Source of the DNA: Escherichia coli
GTDB taxonomy: Bacteria > Pseudomonadota > Gammaproteobacteria > Enterobacterales > Enterobacteriaceae
Direction: 5' to 3' (one strand)
Assembly (NCBI RefSeq): GCF_009931435.1
Contig: NZ_CP043414.1
Length of the DNA stretch: 64,000 nt
Shown: positions 3,028-23,105 of the stretch, piece after piece
How the letters are laid out: each line of letters starts with the position of its first letter
Numbering within the stretch: the stretch's first letter is position 1
The notes under the pieces: model-generated
Database searches by the model: none
What the model was told of the DNA's origin: nothing
What the model saw: the letters and a program-made list of their open reading frames with translations, nothing else
Program-made: the position numbers and the translations under genes

Positions 3028-3375
3028 GGTACGCATGATAAGACACGCCTGCGTCGCATCAGGCATTGGTGCATGGTGTCGGATGCGGCGCGTGCGCCTT
3101 ATCCGACCTACGGTTCAGGCCTGTAGGCATGATAAGACGCGTCAGCGTCGCATCAGGCATCTGCGCACGGTGTCGGATGCGCCGCGTGCGCCTTATCCGA
3201 CCTACGGTTCAGGCCTGTAGGCATGATAAGACGCGTCAGCGTCGCATCAGGCATTGGTGCACGGTGTCGGATGCGGCGCGTGCGCCTTATCCGACCTGCG
3301 GTTCAGGCCTGTAGGCATAATAAGACGCGGTAAGCGTCGCATCAGGCATCTGCGCACGGTGTCGGACGCGCCACA
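3028..3375. repeat. REP/BIME array, about 3.5 tandem units of roughly 95 bp
   Basis: Near-identical units GATAAGACGCGTCAGCGTCGCATCAGGCAT...GGTGTCGGATGCGCCGCGTGCGCCTTATCCGACCTACGGTTCAGGCCTGTAGGCAT repeated; six-frame ORFs here show the same peptide repeated, as expected for a repeat array. Confidence 0.8.
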
Positions 3376-3394
3376 CAACACATCCGACAACACC

Positions 3395-5281
3395 TTACTC
3401 TTCCATCGCCTGGCGGATCTGATCCAACGACGCAGGATCATCAATAGTCGTCAGATCCCCCGGATCGCGTCCTTCACAAATCGCCTGGATCGTACGGCGC
3501 AGCATTTTTCCGGATCGCGTTTTCGGTAATTGCGAGACAAACCAGACGTGCGCCGGGCGACCAAAGTTGCCAATCTGGCTGTCCACCAGCGCCATAATCG
3601 CCTTCTCTTGCGAGTGCGCCACCTCGCGATCTTCCAGACTGTCGCTCTCTTTCGGAATGACAAACGCCACCGCCACCTGCCCTTTCAGCGCATCTTTCAC
3701 CCCAACCACCGCCACTTCAGCAACGCCCGGATGACTGGAGATACTCTCTTCAATCTCGCGTGTGCCAAGCCGATGCCCGGCAACATTAATCACATCGTCA
3801 GTGCGCCCGAGAATAAAGTGATAACCGTCAGCATCGCGGATGCCCCAGTCAAAGGTGGCGTACACCGGACGGGAAAACAGCGACCAGTACGTCTTCACAA
3901 AGCGGTCGTCGTCGCCCCAGATGGTCTGAATACACCCCGGGGGCAGCGGCCCTTCTACCACCAGCATCCCTTTCTCGTTGACGCCGCACGGTTCGCCGGT
4001 GACTTCATTGAGCAACTGCACGTTGTATCCATACATCGGCACGCCGGGGCTTCCCAGACGTGTCGGCCTGTCGTCCAGACCGCGAGCAATCGCCATAATC
4101 GGCCAGCCGGATTCGGTCTGCCAGTAGTTGTCGATGACCGGCACATCCAGCGTATTGCTCACCCAACTGGCAGTCGGCTCATCCAGCGGTTCTCCCGCCA
4201 GATAGAGCACTTCCAGCGACGAGAGATCGTGTTTGCGAATTTCAGCGGTAGGGAATTTTTTCAGCACGCGGATGGCGGTCGGCGCTGAGAACATCCGGCT
4301 AACCTGATATTTCTCGACGATTTTCCACCACACGCCGCAGTCAGGCCAGGTCGGTAATCCTTCGTAAACGATAGTCGCCATCCCCGCCAGCAGCGGCGCG
4401 TAGACGATATACGAATGCCCCACTACCCAGCCGATATCCGACGCACAGAAGAACACACCGCCCGCTTTGCCACCAAAAATGGTGTCCATTGAGGTCGCCA
4501 GCGCCACCGCATAACCGCCGACGTCACGCTGTACACCTTTTGGTTTGCCGGTCGTGCCGGAGGTGTAGAGAATGCAGGAGGTTTCGTTGGATTCCAGCCA
4601 CGCCACCGGCACCCGCGCGCCGATGTGCTGATGGCGCAATGACGCGAAATCGACATCCCGTCCGGTAACGCGCGCCATTTTCGCCAGCCCGCGATCCACC
4701 AGCAAAACGTGGCGCGGCTGATGCTGCGCCTGACTTATCGCATCGTCGAGCAATTTTTTATAAGGAATGATTTTGCCACCGCGCGCTCCGGCATCTGCCG
4801 AGACAATCAGCACCGGTTTAGCGTCATCAATCCGCGCAGCCACGCTGTGCGAGGCAAATCCACCAAACACTACCGAGTGAATAGCGCCAATGCGCGCGCA
4901 GGCCAGCAGGGTAATATGCGCTTCGGCAATCATCGGCATATACACCAGCACCCGATCGCCACGCTGCACGCCCAGTGAGCGCAGCATTGACGCCACCGCG
5001 TTCACTTCGTCATGCAACTGGCGAAAGGTAAAGGTGCGCTCTTCTTCTGTTTCCGAAGAGACGGCAATCAGCGCCAGCGCCTCTGGCTGTTTCTCCAGCC
5101 AGCGGTCGATGGCGTTGTGGCACAAATTGGTTCGGCCTTCACAAAACCAACGGGCAAACGGCGGATTGCTGTGATCGAGCGTTTGCGTAAAGGGCGTCTG
5201 CCAGTCAATACGCCGGGCCTGCTCGGCCCAGAATTGCTCCGGTTCGTTAATCGAACGCTGATAAAATTCGCTAAAAGACAT
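3395..5281 (-). CDS. prpE: Propionyl-CoA synthetase (acyl-CoA synthetase family, AMP-forming)
   Basis: 628-aa ORF with the AMP-binding motif YTSGTTGKPKGV; last gene of the prpBCDE order. Confidence 0.93.
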   Translation of the reverse strand: MSFSEFYQRSINEPEQFWAEQARRIDWQTPFTQTLDHSNPPFARWFCEGRTNLCHNAIDRWLEKQPEALALIAVSSETEEERTFTFRQLHDEVNAVASMLRSLGVQRGDRVLVYMPMIAEAHITLLACARIGAIHSVVFGGFASHSVAARIDDAKPVLIVSADAGARGGKIIPYKKLLDDAISQAQHQPRHVLLVDRGLAKMARVTGRDVDFASLRHQHIGARVPVAWLESNETSCILYTSGTTGKPKGVQRDVGGYAVALATSMDTIFGGKAGGVFFCASDIGWVVGHSYIVYAPLLAGMATIVYEGLPTWPDCGVWWKIVEKYQVSRMFSAPTAIRVLKKFPTAEIRKHDLSSLEVLYLAGEPLDEPTASWVSNTLDVPVIDNYWQTESGWPIMAIARGLDDRPTRLGSPGVPMYGYNVQLLNEVTGEPCGVNEKGMLVVEGPLPPGCIQTIWGDDDRFVKTYWSLFSRPVYATFDWGIRDADGYHFILGRTDDVINVAGHRLGTREIEESISSHPGVAEVAVVGVKDALKGQVAVAFVIPKESDSLEDREVAHSQEKAIMALVDSQIGNFGRPAHVWFVSQLPKTRSGKMLRRTIQAICEGRDPGDLTTIDDPASLDQIRQAMEE

Positions 5282-5320
5282 AATGCTCTCCTGTTGAACT
5301 TACGCCTTACCGCCGTTTAC

Positions 5321-6772
5321 TTAAATGACGTACAGGTCGAGATACTCATTGACCGGCATCTGTTCCAGGCGAGTTCTGTCGAGAGAAACCTCCAGAATGC
5401 GCTGCTGTTGGCGAGTCGGGAACTGGCGCGCGAGATTGATTTTGAATTTATCCACCAGCTTCGGAATGCCATCCTGACGGCGGCGAGCATGACCAATTGG
5501 GTACTCCACCACCACTTCTTCAAATCGCGTACCGTCGGTAAACTCAAGGGTTATGGCATTGGCGATGGCGCGTTTTTCAGGATCGTGGTAGTCAGCGGTA
5601 AATGCCGGATCTTCAAAGCAATTGATCTTCTCGCGCAGGGCGTCGATGCGTTTATCTTGCGCGACGTTGTCTTCGTAATCTGCTGCCGTTAAGCGCCCGA
5701 ACAGCAGTGGGATCGCCACCATATACTGAATGCAGTGGTCGCGGTCAGCCGGGTTATTGAGCGGCCCTTTTTTGTCGATGATGCGAATACAGGCTTCGTG
5801 GGTGCGAATGGTCACTTTTTCGATATCTGCCGCCGTTTTGCCTGCTGCCTGCATCTGTTCATAGAGCGTCATCGCCGCTTCAACTGCCGTCTGGGAGTGG
5901 AACTCAGCCGGGAAGGAGATTTTGAACAGCACATTTTCCATGACGTAAGAACCGTACGGGCGCTGGAAGCGGAACGATTCACCTTTAAAGGAGACGTCGT
6001 AGAAGCCCCATACCGGCGCGGTCAGGGCTGACGGGTAACCCATTTCGCCCGTTTTCGCCATCAGTGCCAGACGTACCGCGCGGGAAGTGGCATCGCCCGC
6101 CGCCCAGGATTTACGCGTGCCGGTGTTCGGCGCATGGCGATAGGTGCGCAGCGACTGACCGTCCACCCACGCCAGCGAAACGGCGTTGAGAATTTCCTCG
6201 CGGGTCAGGCCGAGCATTTCGGCGACCACGGCGGTGGAAGCCACTTTCACTAACAGAACGTGGTCGAGGCCAACGCGGTTAAAGGAGTTTTCCAGCGCGA
6301 TGCAGCCCTGAATTTCATGGGCTTTAATCATTCCGGTCAGCACCTGTTTCATGGTCAACGGCGCTTTGCCGCTGGCGACCGCGTTGCGCGAAAGCCAGTC
6401 CGCCGTTGCCAGAATGCCGCCGAGGTTGTCGGAAGGATGGCCCCACTCCGCCGCCAGCCAGGTATCGTTGAAATCAAGCCAGCGGATCATCGCGCCGATG
6501 TTAAATGCCGCCTGGACGGGGTCGAGCTGGAACTGAGTTCCGGGGACGCGCACGCCGTTAGGTACGACGGTGCCAGGAACAATTGGCCCCAGCAGTTTTT
6601 TACAGGCCGGGTATTCGAGAGCTTCCAGACCGCAGCCAAGGGTGTCGAGCAGGCAGTAATGGGCGGTGTCGTAGGCCACTCTGGAGCTGATTTCGTAGTT
6701 CATGACGTAATCGACGATATCAACGATTTCACGATCAAATTCCGGACGGATGTTGTTGATTTGAGCTGACAT
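5321..6772 (-). CDS. prpD: 2-methylcitrate dehydratase
   Basis: 483-aa ORF of the MmgE/PrpD type; position between prpC and prpE. Confidence 0.93.
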
Positions 6773-6805
6773 TGGGTACGTTTCCTTCTTGTTATTCGTA
6801 GAGGT

Positions 6806-7975
6806 TTACTGGCGCTTATCCAGCGCGACAAACGGGCGGTCTTCAGGGCCAACATAATTGGCGGAAGGACGGATAATTTTGTTGTCCTGACGTTGTTCGA
6901 TAATGTGCGCCGCCCAGCCGGTGACGCGGGCGATAACAAACAGTGGCGTGAACATCTCGGTGGGAACGCCCATCATGTTGTAGGAAACAGCGGAGAACCA
7001 GTCGAGATTGGGGAACATCTTTTTGCTCTCCCACATCACCGTTTCCAGACGATCGGCGATGTTGTACATCTTCAGCGAGCCGCCTTCCTGCGAGAGCTGC
7101 TTCGCCACGCGTTTGATCACCTGATGACGCGGGTCAGCGATGGTATAAACCGGATGTCCAAAACCAATCACCACTTCTTTGTTTTCCACGCGCTTGCGGA
7201 TATCGGCTTCGGCTTCGTCCGGCGTTTCGTAACGTTGCTGGATCTCCAGCGACACTTCATTCGCCCCGCCGTGTTTCGGCCCGCGCAGTGCGCCAATCGC
7301 GCCGATAATGGCTGAATACATGTCAGAGCCGGTGCCCGCAATCACCCGGCTGGTAAAGGTGGAGGCGTTAAACTCGTGTTCGGCGTACAGCACCAGCGAA
7401 ATATGCATCGCCTTTTCCCAGCTTTGCGACGGCTTTTCGCCGTGCAGCAAATGCAGGAAGTGACCGCCGATGGAATCGTCATCGGTTTCCGGCTGGATGC
7501 GTTCGCCGTTGTGGCTGTAGTGATACCAGTAGAGAAGAATCGAGCTCAGCGACGCTAATAATTTGTCGGCAATATCCCGCGCGCCAGAGACGGTATGCCC
7601 CTCTTTTTCTGGCAGCGTGCAGCCGAGCGCGGAAACGCCGGTGCGCATGACATCCATCGGATGCGACGCCGCTGGTAAGGCTTCCAGCACGGTACGCACG
7701 TTAGCCGGTAAACCGCGCAGGGCTTTCAGTTTCGTTTTGTAGGCGGCGAGTTCGTCACGGGTCGGCAGTTTGCCGTGGATCAGCAGATGCGCCACTTCTT
7801 CAAATTCGCAATGTTCCGCCAGATCAAGAATATCGTAGCCGCGGTAATGCAGGTCATTGCCACTTTTACCCACGGTGCAGAGCGCCGTATTGCCCGCCGG
7901 AACGCCAGAAAGTGCCACAGATTTTTTCGGTTTAATGACATGGGTGCTGTTTTGCAGGATCGTTGTATCGCTCAT
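6806..7975 (-). CDS. prpC: 2-methylcitrate synthase (citrate synthase family)
   Basis: 389-aa ORF of the citrate-synthase type; synteny. Confidence 0.93.
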
Positions 7976-7999
7976 GTTGTCCTCGTCATTGTTATCATT

Positions 8000-8115
8000 T
8001 GTAGGGTCGAGATTGTTGTCGGATGCGACGCTATGCGTCTTATCCGACCTACAGTTCAGTTCATCCCGTAGGCCTGATAAGCCGCGTCAGCGACGCATCA
8101 GGCATCGGTTGTCGG
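8000..8115. repeat. REP element between prpC and prpB
   Basis: GGATGCGACGCTATGCGTCTTATCCGACCTACAG ... GTAGGCCTGATAAGCCGCGTCAGCGACGCATCAGGCATCGG palindromic REP motifs. Confidence 0.7.
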
Positions 8116-8135
8116 ATACAACCAAAGGGCGTTTT

Positions 8136-9026
8136 TTATTTCGCCTGGTTACGGGCAAACAGGTCGTCGAGCTTCTCTTCGTACTGGTAGTAGTTGATGC
8201 TTTCATACAGCTCGTTGCGGGTCTGCATGGTGTCGATGACGCTTTTCTGCGTACCTTCCTGGCGCAGGACGTTGTAGACATGTTCAGCGGCGCGGTTCAT
8301 GGCGCGGAAAGCAGAAAGGGGATACAGCGCCATTGCGACATGGGCGCTGCGTAATTCGTCGGTGGTAAACAGCGGTGTTGCGCCAAACTCGGTAATGTTG
8401 GCAAGGATTGGCACCTGCACTGCATCGGCAAACTGGCGGTACATAGCGAGTTCGGTAATTGCTTCCGGGAACAACATCTCGGCACCCGCTTCAACATAGG
8501 CCTGCGCACGCTCGATCGCCGCATCCAGCCCTTCAACCGCCAGCGCATCGGTGCGCGCCATGATCACAAAATCAGGATCGGTTTTCGCATCCACCGCCGC
8601 GCGGATCCGATCCACCATCTCTTCTTTCGAGACGATCGCTTTGTTCGGGCGATGACCGCAGCGTTTTGCTCCAACCTGATCTTCAATATGTAAGCCCGCC
8701 GCACCGGCTTTAATCATCGATTTCACGGTGCGGGCAACGTTAAAGGCCGAAGAGCCAAAACCGATATCCGCATCCACCAGCAGCGGCAGCGAGCAGACGT
8801 CAGTGATACGACGAATATCAGTCAGCACATCATCAAGAGTAGAAATACCGAGATCCGGCAACCCCAGCGAACCTGCCGCCACGCCACCACCGGAGAGATA
8901 AATCGCCTGATATCCGGCACGCTGCGCCAGCAGCGCATGGTTGGCGTTAATGGTGCCGACAATCTGCAATGGATTTTCTTTAGACAGTGCAGCGCGAAAT
9001 GCTTTACCTGGAGAGTGTAGAGACAT
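8136..9026 (-). CDS. prpB: 2-methylisocitrate lyase (PEP mutase/isocitrate lyase superfamily)
   Basis: 296-aa [37 protein letters not shown]...; first gene of prpBCDE. Confidence 0.93.
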
Positions 9027-9061
9027 AGCCCATCCTTTGTTATCAACTTGTTATTTGCGTT

Positions 9062-9079
9062 GATAAAGACAAAGCAAGG
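9062..9079 (-). promoter_or_regulatory. Candidate sigma-54 (-24/-12) promoter for prpBCDE
   Basis: The minus strand reads TGGCAT-ACCCC-TTGCT, ending about 35 nt upstream of the prpB ATG; consistent with the sigma-54-dependent activator PrpR encoded divergently. Confidence 0.55.
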
Positions 9080-9264
9080 GGTATGCCACAATTGCTTGAA
9101 TAAAATTAAATGTTTAATTTCAATTTGTTAGAGATAAAATCATGAAGTAATCCGCAAATATGCGTTTCAGTTAACGTTTCAGGCAATGTTTCTCTGCGTT
9201 TCATTGCAACAATTATGAAACAAGACTAAACCCAATATTCGGTTTCTTAACTTTGCGGTGCGCT

Positions 9265-10851
9265 ATGGCACATCCACCACGGCTGAATGACGACAAACCG
9301 GTTATCTGGACGGTATCTGTAACGCGGCTGTTCGAGCTATTTCGCGATATCAGTCTCGAGTTTGATCACCTGGCAAACATTACCCCTATCCAGCTTGGCT
9401 TTGAAAAAGCGGTGGCCTACATCCGCAAAAAACTGGCCAGCGAACGCTGCGACGCCATCATTGCCGCTGGCTCTAACGGCGCGTACCTGAAAAGCCGCCT
9501 GTCGGTACCGGTGATTCTGATAAAACCGAGTGGCTATGATGTGTTACAGGCACTAGCAAAAGCCGGAAAACTCACCTCTTCTATCGGCGTTGTCACCTAT
9601 CAGGAAACCATTCCGGCACTGGTAGCGTTTCAAAAAACCTTTAATTTGCGCCTCGACCAACGTAGCTACATTACCGAAGAAGACGCACGTGGGCAGATTA
9701 ACGAGCTAAAAGCCAACGGCACCGAAGCGGTGGTCGGCGCGGGGCTGATTACCGATCTGGCGGAAGAAGCCGGAATGACCGGAATTTTTATCTATTCTGC
9801 CGCCACCGTGCGCCAGGCATTTAGCGATGCGCTGGATATGACGCGCATGTCGTTACGCCATAATACTCACGATGCCACCCGCAACGCCCTGCGTACTCGT
9901 TACGTGCTGGGCGATATGCTCGGTCAATCACCACAGATGGAACAGGTACGGCAGACTATTTTGCTGTATGCCCGCTCCAGTGCGGCGGTGTTGATTGAAG
10001 GGGAAACGGGGACGGGCAAAGAGCTGGCGGCCCAGGCGATTCATCGGGAATATTTTGCCCGCCACGATGCGCGACAGGGCAAAAAGTCGCATCCTTTTGT
10101 TGCCGTCAACTGCGGGGCGATTGCTGAATCTCTGCTGGAAGCGGAGCTGTTTGGCTATGAGGAAGGAGCGTTTACCGGCTCGCGACGCGGAGGCCGCGCC
10201 GGGCTGTTTGAAATCGCCCACGGTGGCACGCTGTTTCTTGACGAGATAGGCGAAATGCCGCTGCCGTTGCAGACCCGGCTGCTGCGGGTGCTGGAAGAAA
10301 AAGAGGTCACCCGCGTCGGCGGGCATCAGCCTGTTCCGGTGGATGTGCGGGTTATTAGCGCCACTCACTGCAATCTCGAAGAGGATATGCAGCAAGGGCG
10401 TTTTCGCCGTGATCTGTTTTATCGACTGAGTATTTTGCGTCTGCAATTGCCGCCGCTACGCGAGCGGGCGGCGGATATTCTGCAGCTGGCGGAAAGCTTT
10501 TTGAAAGTGTCACTGGCGGCACTTACTGCGCCGTTTTCTTCCGCGTTACGTCAGGGATTACAGGCAAGTGAAACTGTGCTGTTGCGCTACAACTGGCCGG
10601 GAAATATTCGTGAACTGCGCAATATGATGGAACGACTGGCGCTATTTTTAAGTGTGGAACCGACGCCGGATTTAACGCCGCAATTTTTGCAGTTGCTACT
10701 GCCGGAACTGGCGCGCGAGTCGGCGGAAACTCCCGGTCCATGCTTACTGACGCCACAACAGGCACTGGAGAAATTTAATGGCGATAAAACAGCCGCGGCG
10801 AATTATTTAGGTATCAGCCGAACGACATTCTGGCGGCGGCTGAAAAACTGA
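9265..10851 (+). CDS. prpR: Sigma-54-dependent transcriptional activator of the prp operon
   Basis: AAA+ sigma-54 activator motifs ([14 protein letters not shown]) and a C-terminal HTH; start placed at MAHPP (5th codon of the 532-aa ORF) to give 528 aa. Confidence 0.9.
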
Positions 10852-16789: not shown

Positions 16790-18281
16790 TTACCACCTCC
16801 GCAATCCTGGCCTGAGAACTGCTGTCAGGCAGGAAGCTATGGGTGATCTGACCTTTTTGCATTACCAAAATCCGGTGGCTTTGATACCACGCTTCTTCAA
16901 TTTCATCGCAGATCATCAATACCGCAATGCCATGAGCCGCCAGATCGCTGATAATGCCGTATATTCCTGCTTTGTTGGCGATATCAACACCGACAGTCGG
17001 GCTATCGAGAATCAACAGTCGTGGCCCAATCGCCAGCCATTTGGCGATCGATACTCGCTGCGCGTTACCCCCGGAAAGCGTATTCACCGGGAGATGTGGG
17101 TCAGAGACTTTGATGGTCAATGCCTTAATTAGCCTGTCCACCAGGTCACGCACTTTAGCTTCACTCAGAAAGCCGAAGCGATCTTTTACCTTGTGAAAAA
17201 CAGTGCTAATGATGTTGTCTTCAATAGATTGCGCCATCACCAAACCGCGCGACATGCGATCTTCCGAAACATAACCAATACCGTGGCGGATGGCGTCCTG
17301 GTTACTATGCAGTGTAACCGGCTGACCGTTGATGAGGATCTCACCAGCATCCGGTCGGGTCATACCAAACAGACTCAGACATAATTCCGTGCGCCCCGCA
17401 CCAAGCAGGCCAACAATCGACACCACTTCGCCCGCTTCCACCCGCAAGTTAATATTTTGATATTCCCCATGACGACTTAAATTACGCACCTCCAGCACTG
17501 GGGTGCTGGATTTTCCCTGCCACAACTCTCGCACCTGATATTCAAACTCCTGGCCGGTCATCAGGAAACCGAGTTGTTTTGTGGTCATCTCTGCAGCCGG
17601 AAAGGTCCCGACCAGCTCACCATCTTTCAACACTGAAATACGGTCGGAAACTTCCATCACCTCTTCCAGACGATGACTGACGAAGACCACGCAGATCCCG
17701 CGTTCCCGCAATTGATGCACCACCTGTAATAACCCTTGCACTTCCTGATGGGTCAGCGAAGCGGTTGGTTCATCCATCACGATCAACCGTGCGTCCTGCG
17801 CCAGTGCACGGCAAATTGCCACCAGCTGACAGCGGGCAATTGAAAGCTCAGAAACGAGCGTATCCAGTGGCAATGTGACGTTAATACTGGTCATTGCCGC
17901 CTGCGCCACCTCACGCAGACGACGTCGGTTAACAAACAGTCCGTGGTGATAGTGATTCACGGCGATATTCTCCCAGACACTCAGGTTAGGAAATAAAGAG
18001 AGGTCCTGATAAATCACCTGAATCCCCTGCGCCACCGAAGCGGCGGGTGTCAGCTTTGACCAGTTTTTCCCACCAAGCGTAATTTCCGCCCCCTCATCCG
18101 GGCGATAAACACCGGACATAATTTTAATCAACGTCGATTTACCACAGCCGTTTTGCCCGGCAAGGCAGTGCACCTCACCCGACATAAAGTCGAGAGAAAC
18201 ATCGCGCAGCGCTCGCGTGGCATGAAACGTTTTGTTGATATGACGAAGGGAAAGGAAGGTTTCCATAGCATCCCCTGGCAA
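16782..18281 (-). CDS. ABC transporter ATP-binding protein, fused double cassette (RbsA/LsrA-like)
   Basis: 499 aa with two Walker A motifs (GQNGCGKST and GLLGAGRTE) and Walker B LIVMDEPTASL. Confidence 0.88.
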   Translation of the reverse strand: MPGDAMETFLSLRHINKTFHATRALRDVSLDFMSGEVHCLAGQNGCGKSTLIKIMSGVYRPDEGAEITLGGKNWSKLTPAASVAQGIQVIYQDLSLFPNLSVWENIAVNHYHHGLFVNRRRLREVAQAAMTSINVTLPLDTLVSELSIARCQLVAICRALAQDARLIVMDEPTASLTHQEVQGLLQVVHQLRERGICVVFVSHRLEEVMEVSDRISVLKDGELVGTFPAAEMTTKQLGFLMTGQEFEYQVRELWQGKSSTPVLEVRNLSRHGEYQNINLRVEAGEVVSIVGLLGAGRTELCLSLFGMTRPDAGEILINGQPVTLHSNQDAIRHGIGYVSEDRMSRGLVMAQSIEDNIISTVFHKVKDRFGFLSEAKVRDLVDRLIKALTIKVSDPHLPVNTLSGGNAQRVSIAKWLAIGPRLLILDSPTVGVDIANKAGIYGIISDLAAHGIAVLMICDEIEEAWYQSHRILVMQKGQITHSFLPDSSSQARIAEVVNG

Positions 18282-22609: not shown

Positions 22610-23105
22610 ATGTCCGCTACAGAGGGTGATGGGGTTATGACCAACGCCAGACAGCCTGATGCGCTACGCTTATCAGGCCTACAGATTCTTGTGCCATTCG
22701 TAGGCCGGATAAGGCGTCCACGCCGCATCCGGCAATGGTGACAAATGCCTGATGCGCTACGCTTATCAGGCCTACAGATTCTCGCGCCACTCGTAGGCCG
22801 GATAAGGCGTTCACGCCACAACCGGCAATGGTGACAAATGCCTGATGCGCTACGCTTATCAGGCCTACAGATTCTTGTGCCATTCGTAGGCCGGATAAGG
22901 CGTCCACGCCGCATCCGGCAATCGTGACAAATGCCTGATGCGCTACGCTTATCAGGCCTACAGATTCTTGCGCCACTCGTAGGCCGGATAAGGCGTTCAC
23001 GCCGCATCCGGCAATGGTGACAAATGCCTGATGCGCTACGCTTATCAGGCCTACAGATTCTCGCGCCACTCGTAGGCCGGATAAGGCGTTCACGCCACAT
23101 CCGGC
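22610..23105. repeat. BIME/REP array, five tandem units with a period of about 92-95 bp
   Basis: GCCTGATGCGCTACGCTTATCAGGCCTACAGATTCT...GTAGGCCGGATAAGGCG...GCATCCGGCAATGGTGACAAAT repeats starting near 22652, 22747, 22840, 22933 and 23025. Confidence 0.85.

Follow-up and report, generated by a model that had tools for sequence, protein, structure and literature searches.

The window, by which we mean the whole 64,000-nt stretch of Escherichia coli DNA that was analysed, contains prpR and the prpBCDE genes in divergent orientation on either side of a short, AT-rich gap (Table 1). The gap extends exactly from the prpB ATG at 9026 (minus strand) to the prpR ATG at 9265 (plus strand). The latter is an annotated-type start, and the same gap is found in the RefSeq annotation of close strains. 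Divergent prpR and prpBCDE with the enzyme families expected of an enterobacterial prp locus are present, as judged from the open reading frames and Pfam, and all of the prp genes in the window are full length. Identity to the K-12 locus is 97-98% over the prp region and about 97% over the intergenic region, where there are 7 differences in 238 nt. The intergenic region contains 34.5% GC, compared to 49.4% for the whole window.

Table 1. Positions of genes and sequence features at the prp locus, numbered from the first nucleotide of the 64,000-nt window.
Feature	Position	Strand	Basis or remark
prpBCDE operon	3395..9026	-	ORFs; Pfam; K-12 lengths and order matched
prpE	5281..3395	-	628-codon ORF; Pfam AMP-binding
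prpD	6772..5321	-	483-codon ORF; Pfam MmgE_PrpD
prpC	7975..6806	-	389-codon ORF; Pfam Citrate_synt
prpB	9026..8136	-	296-codon ORF; Pfam PEP_mutase/ICL
prpB-prpR divergent intergenic control region	9027..9264	.	238 nt, 34.5% GC; ORF map, sequence, composition
prpB leader, with Shine-Dalgarno AAGGA at 9037..9033	9027..9061	-	sequence; K-12-identical from -12 element to ATG
Inverted repeat TTATCAAC-N11-GTTGATAA	9040-9047 / 9059-9066	.	leader IHF consensus forms one arm
Perfect IHF consensus TATCAACTTGTTA in prpB leader	9041..9053	+	centre about +15; consensus scan
Predicted prpBCDE transcription start (+/-2 nt)	9062	-	inferred from the rule of PMC4591121
Sigma-54 promoter element TGGCATACCCCTTGCT	9073..9088	-	sole window match, top matrix score, conservation, ortholog binding
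Polymorphic base, -21 in the -24 element	9083	-	T here, C in K-12
AT-rich spacer, enhancer to promoter	9089..9160	.	22% GC
Most likely IHF site TTTCAATTTGTTA, one mismatch to WATCAANNNNTTR	9118..9130	+	centre -62; consensus scan, recurrence
Predicted PrpR enhancer, GTTTCA/TGAAAC half-site array	9164..9221	.	motif enrichment, conservation, phasing
Exact GTTTCA half-sites	9164-9169, 9176-9181, 9198-9203	+	motif match
Degenerate half-site GTTTCT	9188-9193	+	motif match
Degenerate half-site GTTGCA	9205-9210	-	motif match
Exact GTTTCA half-site	9216-9221	-	motif match
Inverted repeat GTTTCAT-N10-ATGAAAC	9198-9204 / 9215-9221	.	within the half-site array
Palindrome AAACCCAATATTCGGTTT, between enhancer and prpR start	9228..9245	.	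partly conserved in Escherichia, Citrobacter, Kluyvera
prpR	9265..10851	+	528 aa; sigma-54 enhancer-binding protein; Pfam domains and motifs

The domains of PrpR are PrpR_N, Sigma54_activat (PF00158, E 1e-65), AAA_lid_14 and HTH_8, the last being a helix-turn-helix of the Fis type. The Walker A (GETGTGKE) and Walker B (DEIGE) motifs are present, as is the sigma-54 contact loop at residues 301-306, and overall the protein is 97.5% identical to PrpR of K-12. The locus thus encodes an enhancer-binding protein to match the promoter, with an AAA+ domain for interaction with sigma-54 and a loop of the GAFTGA type. The loop itself reads GAFTGS, not the canonical GAFTGA, and does likewise in K-12 and in 60 of 63 orthologues; by that sequence comparison, a loop that ends in S and not in A is normal for the PrpR family.

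The prpB-prpC spacer (7976-8135) measures 160 nt here, compared to 440 nt for K-12 and 348 nt for strain 2020CK-00188. It carries REP-like palindromes, so that repeat content differs among strains. An Rfam scan returned no RNA family in the control region. Its only matches, to naRNA4, a REP-derived family, lie elsewhere in the window, as tandem arrays of three and four at 3032-3296 (minus) and 22703-23051 (plus); one array follows prpE, and its counterpart is close to the yahI/yahJ region. Among 5426 complete E. coli genomes the intergenic region is unmatched in 208. One strain, SCPM-O-B-9504 (L090), has prpR cut to an N-terminal fragment flanked by IS1, and hence apart from prpB.

On the minus strand, TGGCAT-N5-TTGCT (TGGCATACCCCTTGCT) runs from 9088 to 9073, 46 nt 5' of the prpB ATG. 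Its GG and GC doublets are 10 bp apart on the coding strand 5' of prpB, which is the arrangement of a sigma-54 promoter. According to the rule given in PMC4591121, transcription starts 19 nt downstream of the motif centre, ie 12 nt past the C of the GC doublet, and the K-12 start predicted in this way is 36 nt from prpB. The same rule predicts that prpBCDE transcription in the window starts at about 9062, again 36 nt before the prpB ATG. With +1 at this position, the GG doublet falls at -25/-24 (9087, 9086) and the GC doublet at -13/-12 (9075, 9074). A first-pass annotation of this DNA had reported the motif on the minus strand at the expected distance from prpB, and had taken PrpR for a sigma-54 activator. 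Both the motif and its distance stand, the motif being the sole match in the window and the predicted start having the same offset as that predicted for K-12, and the Sigma54_activat domain and GAFTGS loop bear out the assignment of PrpR.

For the leader alone the prediction is an RNA without structure (-6.1 kcal/mol, z +0.9), which folds no better than shuffled sequences. The inverted repeat of the leader was considered as an RNA hairpin and rejected, as changes in the arms in other genera break pairs without compensation. The predicted start also lies within the 5' arm of the repeat, so that at most 4 bp could pair.

Upstream of the promoter, GTTTCA/TGAAAC half-sites form an array that spans -107 to -159 relative to the predicted start. 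Four exact copies occur in 58 nt, compared to 0.036 expected (P ~7e-8). Their spacing of 10-12 bp would place the copies roughly on one face of the helix. The blocks of the array are invariant in the seven genera aligned (15 sequences), among them TGAAACGTTA.CTG and, as the distal inverted repeat, TGTTTCAT-N10-ATGAAAC. When the comparison was extended to 80 prpB loci, one genome per species, the half-site extended to YGTTTCAT, and the commonest spacings were 11-12 and 21-22 bp for direct repeats and 17-18 or 6 bp for inverted ones. The Salmonella enhancer consensus, as quoted in PMC4987338 from Palacios 2004, is CGTTTCATGAAACG. This exact 14-mer is absent from the window, from K-12 and from all four Escherichia sequences checked, and it is present as a zero-spaced palindrome in Citrobacter, Salmonella and Pluralibacter. 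In its place (9168-9187 in the window) Escherichia has ATTGCCTGAAACG, together with a TGAAAC acquired 12 bp downstream of it, giving tandem copies. Judged by its sequence, the enhancer is therefore present in a layout, common to K-12 and the window, that is unlike the textbook Salmonella form. The half-sites also resemble the Cra consensus, and a site with one mismatch at 9158-9171 was considered; it was rejected as a chance match because there are 23 matches of equal quality in the 64 kb. PrpR is not mentioned in a compendium of 139 transcription-factor ChIP-seq profiles.

The earlier annotation had also anticipated that the remainder of the intergenic region is AT-rich and would hold the PrpR enhancer and an IHF site. 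The base composition agrees with this, particularly that of the spacer between enhancer and promoter (9089-9160, 22% GC), the half-site array is where the enhancer was predicted to be, and for IHF there is a plausible candidate. Four sites with no more than one mismatch to the IHF consensus, each in fact having one, occur in the 72-nt spacer, compared to 0.34 expected. An IHF-like site at -62, in the same orientation, is found in all Escherichia examined. In Citrobacter, Kluyvera, Pluralibacter, Providencia and some Oxalobacteraceae there is one in the same orientation at -72 to -74, and Photorhabdus, Pseudocitrobacter and Shimwellia have one at -83 to -85 whose orientation varies. In the 15-sequence alignment the conserved columns of the spacer (9130, 9128 and 9122) are IHF consensus positions. 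We consider, with moderate confidence, that 9118-9130 is most likely the IHF site between enhancer and promoter.

The sole perfect IHF consensus of the region is not in the spacer. It lies in the prpB leader, is one of three perfect matches in 64 kb, and has a local P of about 0.004. It is perfect in all sampled Escherichia, Citrobacter and Kluyvera loci apart from that of Citrobacter sp. R56, which has one mismatch, whereas the sequence immediately upstream of the consensus varies. This could be the site that matters, instead of or besides the one in the spacer, acting through a downstream bend or by damping basal transcription. We regard this as rather unlikely. The leader consensus is absent or degenerate in Pseudocitrobacter, in Shimwellia, in most distant taxa and in Salmonella, where the requirement for ihf was demonstrated, and its conservation is equally explicable by constraint on translation initiation. 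Sigma-54 promoters that are assisted by IHF have the IHF site between enhancer and promoter, and it is in this position that a site recurs across genera. The spacer site at 9118-9130 is accordingly retained as the preferred candidate.

The promoter (9069-9085) and the Shine-Dalgarno and AUG of prpB (9024-9040) form 17-nt arms that are 82% complementary. When the transcript is extended upstream it is predicted to fold at -25.6 kcal/mol (z -2.3), compared to the -6.1 kcal/mol of the leader alone, and the folding energy added by the upstream arm has a z of -4.0 in the window. Over 77 loci, the pairing was found in 17 of the 18 from Escherichia and Citrobacter (5.2 expected). On this basis the promoter might double as an anti-Shine-Dalgarno: transcripts entering from upstream would pair GGCAUACCCCUUGCUUUGU with the ribosome-binding site and AUG of prpB, and only those started by sigma-54 would be translated. 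Outside these two genera, however, the pairing shows no enrichment (12 of 59 loci, 10.6 expected), and it is lacking in Kluyvera, Pluralibacter and Salmonella. Moreover, the differences between Escherichia and Citrobacter are uncompensated, and each arm is in any case under some other constraint. Since the enrichment is confined to Escherichia and Citrobacter, the idea is kept at a low probability; we think it improbable.

Taken together, the perfect IHF consensus in the leader and the complementarity of promoter and ribosome-binding site could constitute, in the Escherichia-Citrobacter group, a second layer of control that silences prpBCDE upon read-in or IHF occupancy. We consider this doubtful. 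If true, it would add tightness after initiation to a sigma-54 promoter that is already tight. These two weakly supported features are the sole points for which no description was found in the literature examined.

The positions of the CRP site and of the prpR promoter are less readily assigned. PMC9452892, citing Lee et al. 2005, describes a CRP site overlapping the PrpR operator. A scan of the region with the CRP consensus gave nothing above 6 of 10 core positions, for example TGCGTTTCAGTTAACG at 9161-9176. With regard to prpR, a simple scan of 8900-9400 found no sigma-70-type promoter and no terminator. Candidate -10 hexamers near 9234-9239 were dismissed because they are not conserved. The lack of a sigma-70-type match in this interval fits an activator-dependent prpR promoter, and the palindrome at 9228-9245 may be part of that promoter or of the prpR leader. 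These positions, like the exact start of prpBCDE and the IHF-like sequence that is used, are ones that we infer from sequence.

A matrix for sigma-54 promoters was made from 41 other intergenic E. coli sites verified by ChIP-seq (Bonocora et al., PMC4591121), with prpB excluded, and was used both to assess the strain-specific differences and to scan the window. The -24 element is TGGCAT here and TGGCAC in K-12, and 8 of 9 sampled E. coli strains carry the C. The 49-nt promoter segment is identical to that of the window in 3 of the 3789 complete E. coli genomes in which it was matched; TGGCAT is rare in E. coli, most strains having TGGCAC. T at -21 also occurs in E. albertii, Citrobacter, Kluyvera and Salmonella, and is therefore the ancestral base. 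The second difference is a T-to-A change in the half-site at 9188-9193 (-131), which converts TGAAAC to AGAAAC (GTGAAAC to GAGAAAC). The intact half-site is present in K-12 and in most sampled E. coli.

It follows that the region could be intact in outline and yet regulate more weakly in this strain. T at -21 costs about 0.7 bit, and of 12 Escherichia sequences that were compared, the window alone has lost the -131 TGAAAC. Weakened regulation is nevertheless distinctly improbable. TGGCAT is bound and active in Salmonella and is found in 14 of the 41 verified E. coli sites, no non-Escherichia relative in the alignment has the -131 half-site, and none of the prp genes has decayed from full length. 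As Salmonella and Citrobacter share both states, neither variant looks disabling. It may be noted that the closest complete E. coli genome shows an identity of only about 97.8% over 25 kb (window 1-25000), and that the 238-nt intergenic region is identical in none of the 5426 complete genomes, the best being 98.7%. A divergent Escherichia lineage is the apparent source of the window.

In the window scan the prpB element scored 14.61 bits, the best among about 128,000 positions and above 10 of the 41 training sites, although this score was reached in 12 of 30 shuffled windows. Two further positions gave fairly high scores, 8408-8424 (+) with 12.8 bits and 16807-16823 (+) with 14.2 bits. Both are in the chance range and antisense within genes, the former within prpB and the latter within an ABC-transporter permease gene. 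The pattern TGGCAY-N5-TTGCW gave a similar result. It has a single match in the 64 kb, the prpB element, compared to an expectation of 0.34 per window, and at least one match occurred in 29 of 100 shuffles. The motif by itself is therefore within the chance range for 64 kb. When it is required to be on the right strand and no more than about 100 nt upstream of prpB, simple arithmetic from the pattern expectation gives a chance expectation of about 3e-4. The case for the promoter rests on its context, ie strand, distance from prpB, the sigma-54 domain of PrpR, conservation and the binding of orthologous sites.

A -24/-12 element of the form GG-N10-GC was found in about 79 of the 80 prpB upstream regions, and all but two of these lie 38-88 nt before the ATG. 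In two Providencia loci the element is about 190 nt before the ATG, and among the 80 loci it was not found in that of Pseudomonas. The taxa with the element include Escherichia, Citrobacter, Salmonella, Photorhabdus, Xenorhabdus, Providencia, Morganella and the betaproteobacterium Janthinobacterium, ie Enterobacterales and Oxalobacteraceae. In the 15-sequence alignment 12 of the 16 motif columns are invariant, these being the consensus positions and including GG and GC, while the mean identity is 63%.

The comparison with the K-12 and Salmonella prpB promoters, which the first-pass annotation had proposed as a check together with the matrix scan, revealed orthologous elements that are bound by sigma-54. 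[quoted passage not shown] 2015, PMC4591121). According to the same paper, EcoCyc in 2015 had the K-12 prpB promoter entered as 'predicted' and unconfirmed. The prpB-prpR intergenic region was also selected in vitro by the RpoN holoenzyme (PMC8743547). In Salmonella LT2 the orthologue TGGCATAGCCTTTGCTTT had a ChIP-chip ratio of 11 for sigma-54, and prpBCDE expression was 45-fold higher in the wild type than in a delta-rpoN strain (PMC3844500). Four other papers (PMC5566544, PMC4987338, PMC9452892 and PMC3105977) state in summary that PrpR with 2-methylcitrate, sigma-54 and IHF are all needed, and that CRP affects both divergent promoters. What is known of sigma-54 binding, of the need for rpoN, prpR and ihf, of 2-methylcitrate as the signal and of the influence of CRP thus comes from the work of others on orthologues. 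That TGGCAT-N5-TTGCT is a chance match, and that a common sigma-70 promoter within this AT-rich DNA drives prpBCDE instead, is extremely improbable despite the unremarkable whole-window statistics, given an element kept with invariant GG and GC in nearly all of the loci, sigma-54 binding to orthologous sites in two species with RpoN-dependent expression in Salmonella, an adjoining gene for a sigma-54 activator and the lack of any sigma-70-like promoter in 8900-9400.

The region from 9027 to 9264 very probably represents the control region that is native to the propionate (2-methylcitrate cycle) locus of an Escherichia strain and serves its divergent genes, consisting of a sigma-54 promoter, an array of PrpR sites and an IHF bend. 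The sequence elements, their positions and conservation and the domains of PrpR are demonstrated here directly. They suggest the following scheme. Sigma-54 RNA polymerase would bind TGGCAT-N5-TTGCT as a closed complex that is unable to open by itself. PrpR, encoded divergently, would occupy the GTTTCA/TGAAAC array about 107-159 bp upstream of the start, and its N-terminal domain would sense 2-methylcitrate, formed from propionate via PrpE and PrpC, leading to assembly of the AAA+ domains. A DNA loop, aided by IHF bending the 22%-GC spacer, with 9118-9130 as its most likely site, would bring the GAFTGS loop of PrpR into contact with sigma-54, and ATP would be spent on opening the promoter. Transcription of prpBCDE from about 9062 would then yield a leader of 36 nt that lacks structure and carries a good Shine-Dalgarno. 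The cAMP-CRP complex, at a site reported to overlap the PrpR sites, would act on both divergent promoters, and the promoter of prpR itself would be weak, depart from consensus and lie at some point between 9200 and 9260.

The control region is already known and is not novel, in agreement with the first-pass annotation, which had recorded it as an established architecture. The present analysis mainly confirms that annotation and fixes coordinates for the promoter, the predicted start, the enhancer and the likely IHF site in this strain, and it opens no long-standing question. It has some small practical value, because propionate-inducible pPro vectors and propionate biosensors are built on the prp region (PMC5566544, PMC9452892). 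Natural variants could guide the tuning of such systems, namely TGGCAT versus TGGCAC, the Escherichia versus the Salmonella layout of half-sites, and the element in the leader.

Compared to K-12, the window has the same genes in the same order and orientation, the same 238-nt gap, half-site array and spacer and the same predicted 36-nt leader, and from the -12 element onward to the ATG no base differs. It differs by the seven intergenic substitutions, which include TGGCAT for TGGCAC and leave the window with one half-site fewer, and by its much shorter prpB-prpC spacer (160 nt, against 440 nt in K-12). The Salmonella prpBCDE promoter is reportedly known from the work of Horswill, Palacios and Escalante-Semerena and of Samuels et al. 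2013. Salmonella enterica LT2 shares with the window the sigma-54 promoter with TGGCAT at -24, the divergent prpR, the GTTTCA half-sites and TGTTTCAT-N10-ATGAAAC, and the Salmonella system requires 2-methylcitrate, IHF and RpoN. It differs in having, as does Citrobacter, the zero-spaced CGTTTCATGAAACG where Escherichia has ATTGCCTGAAACG and the extra downstream TGAAAC, in a spacer that is about 25 bp longer, and in a degenerate leader IHF consensus. More widely, glnHp2, Pseudomonas Pu and Klebsiella nifH are sigma-54 promoters that are served by enhancer-binding proteins and assisted by IHF. The prp region resembles promoters of this type in its activator sites 100-160 bp upstream, its AT-rich spacer with an IHF-like site and its GG-N10-GC core. 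The architecture is the same, with the difference that PrpR senses a small metabolite through PrpR_N instead of responding to phosphorylation (PMC4987338).
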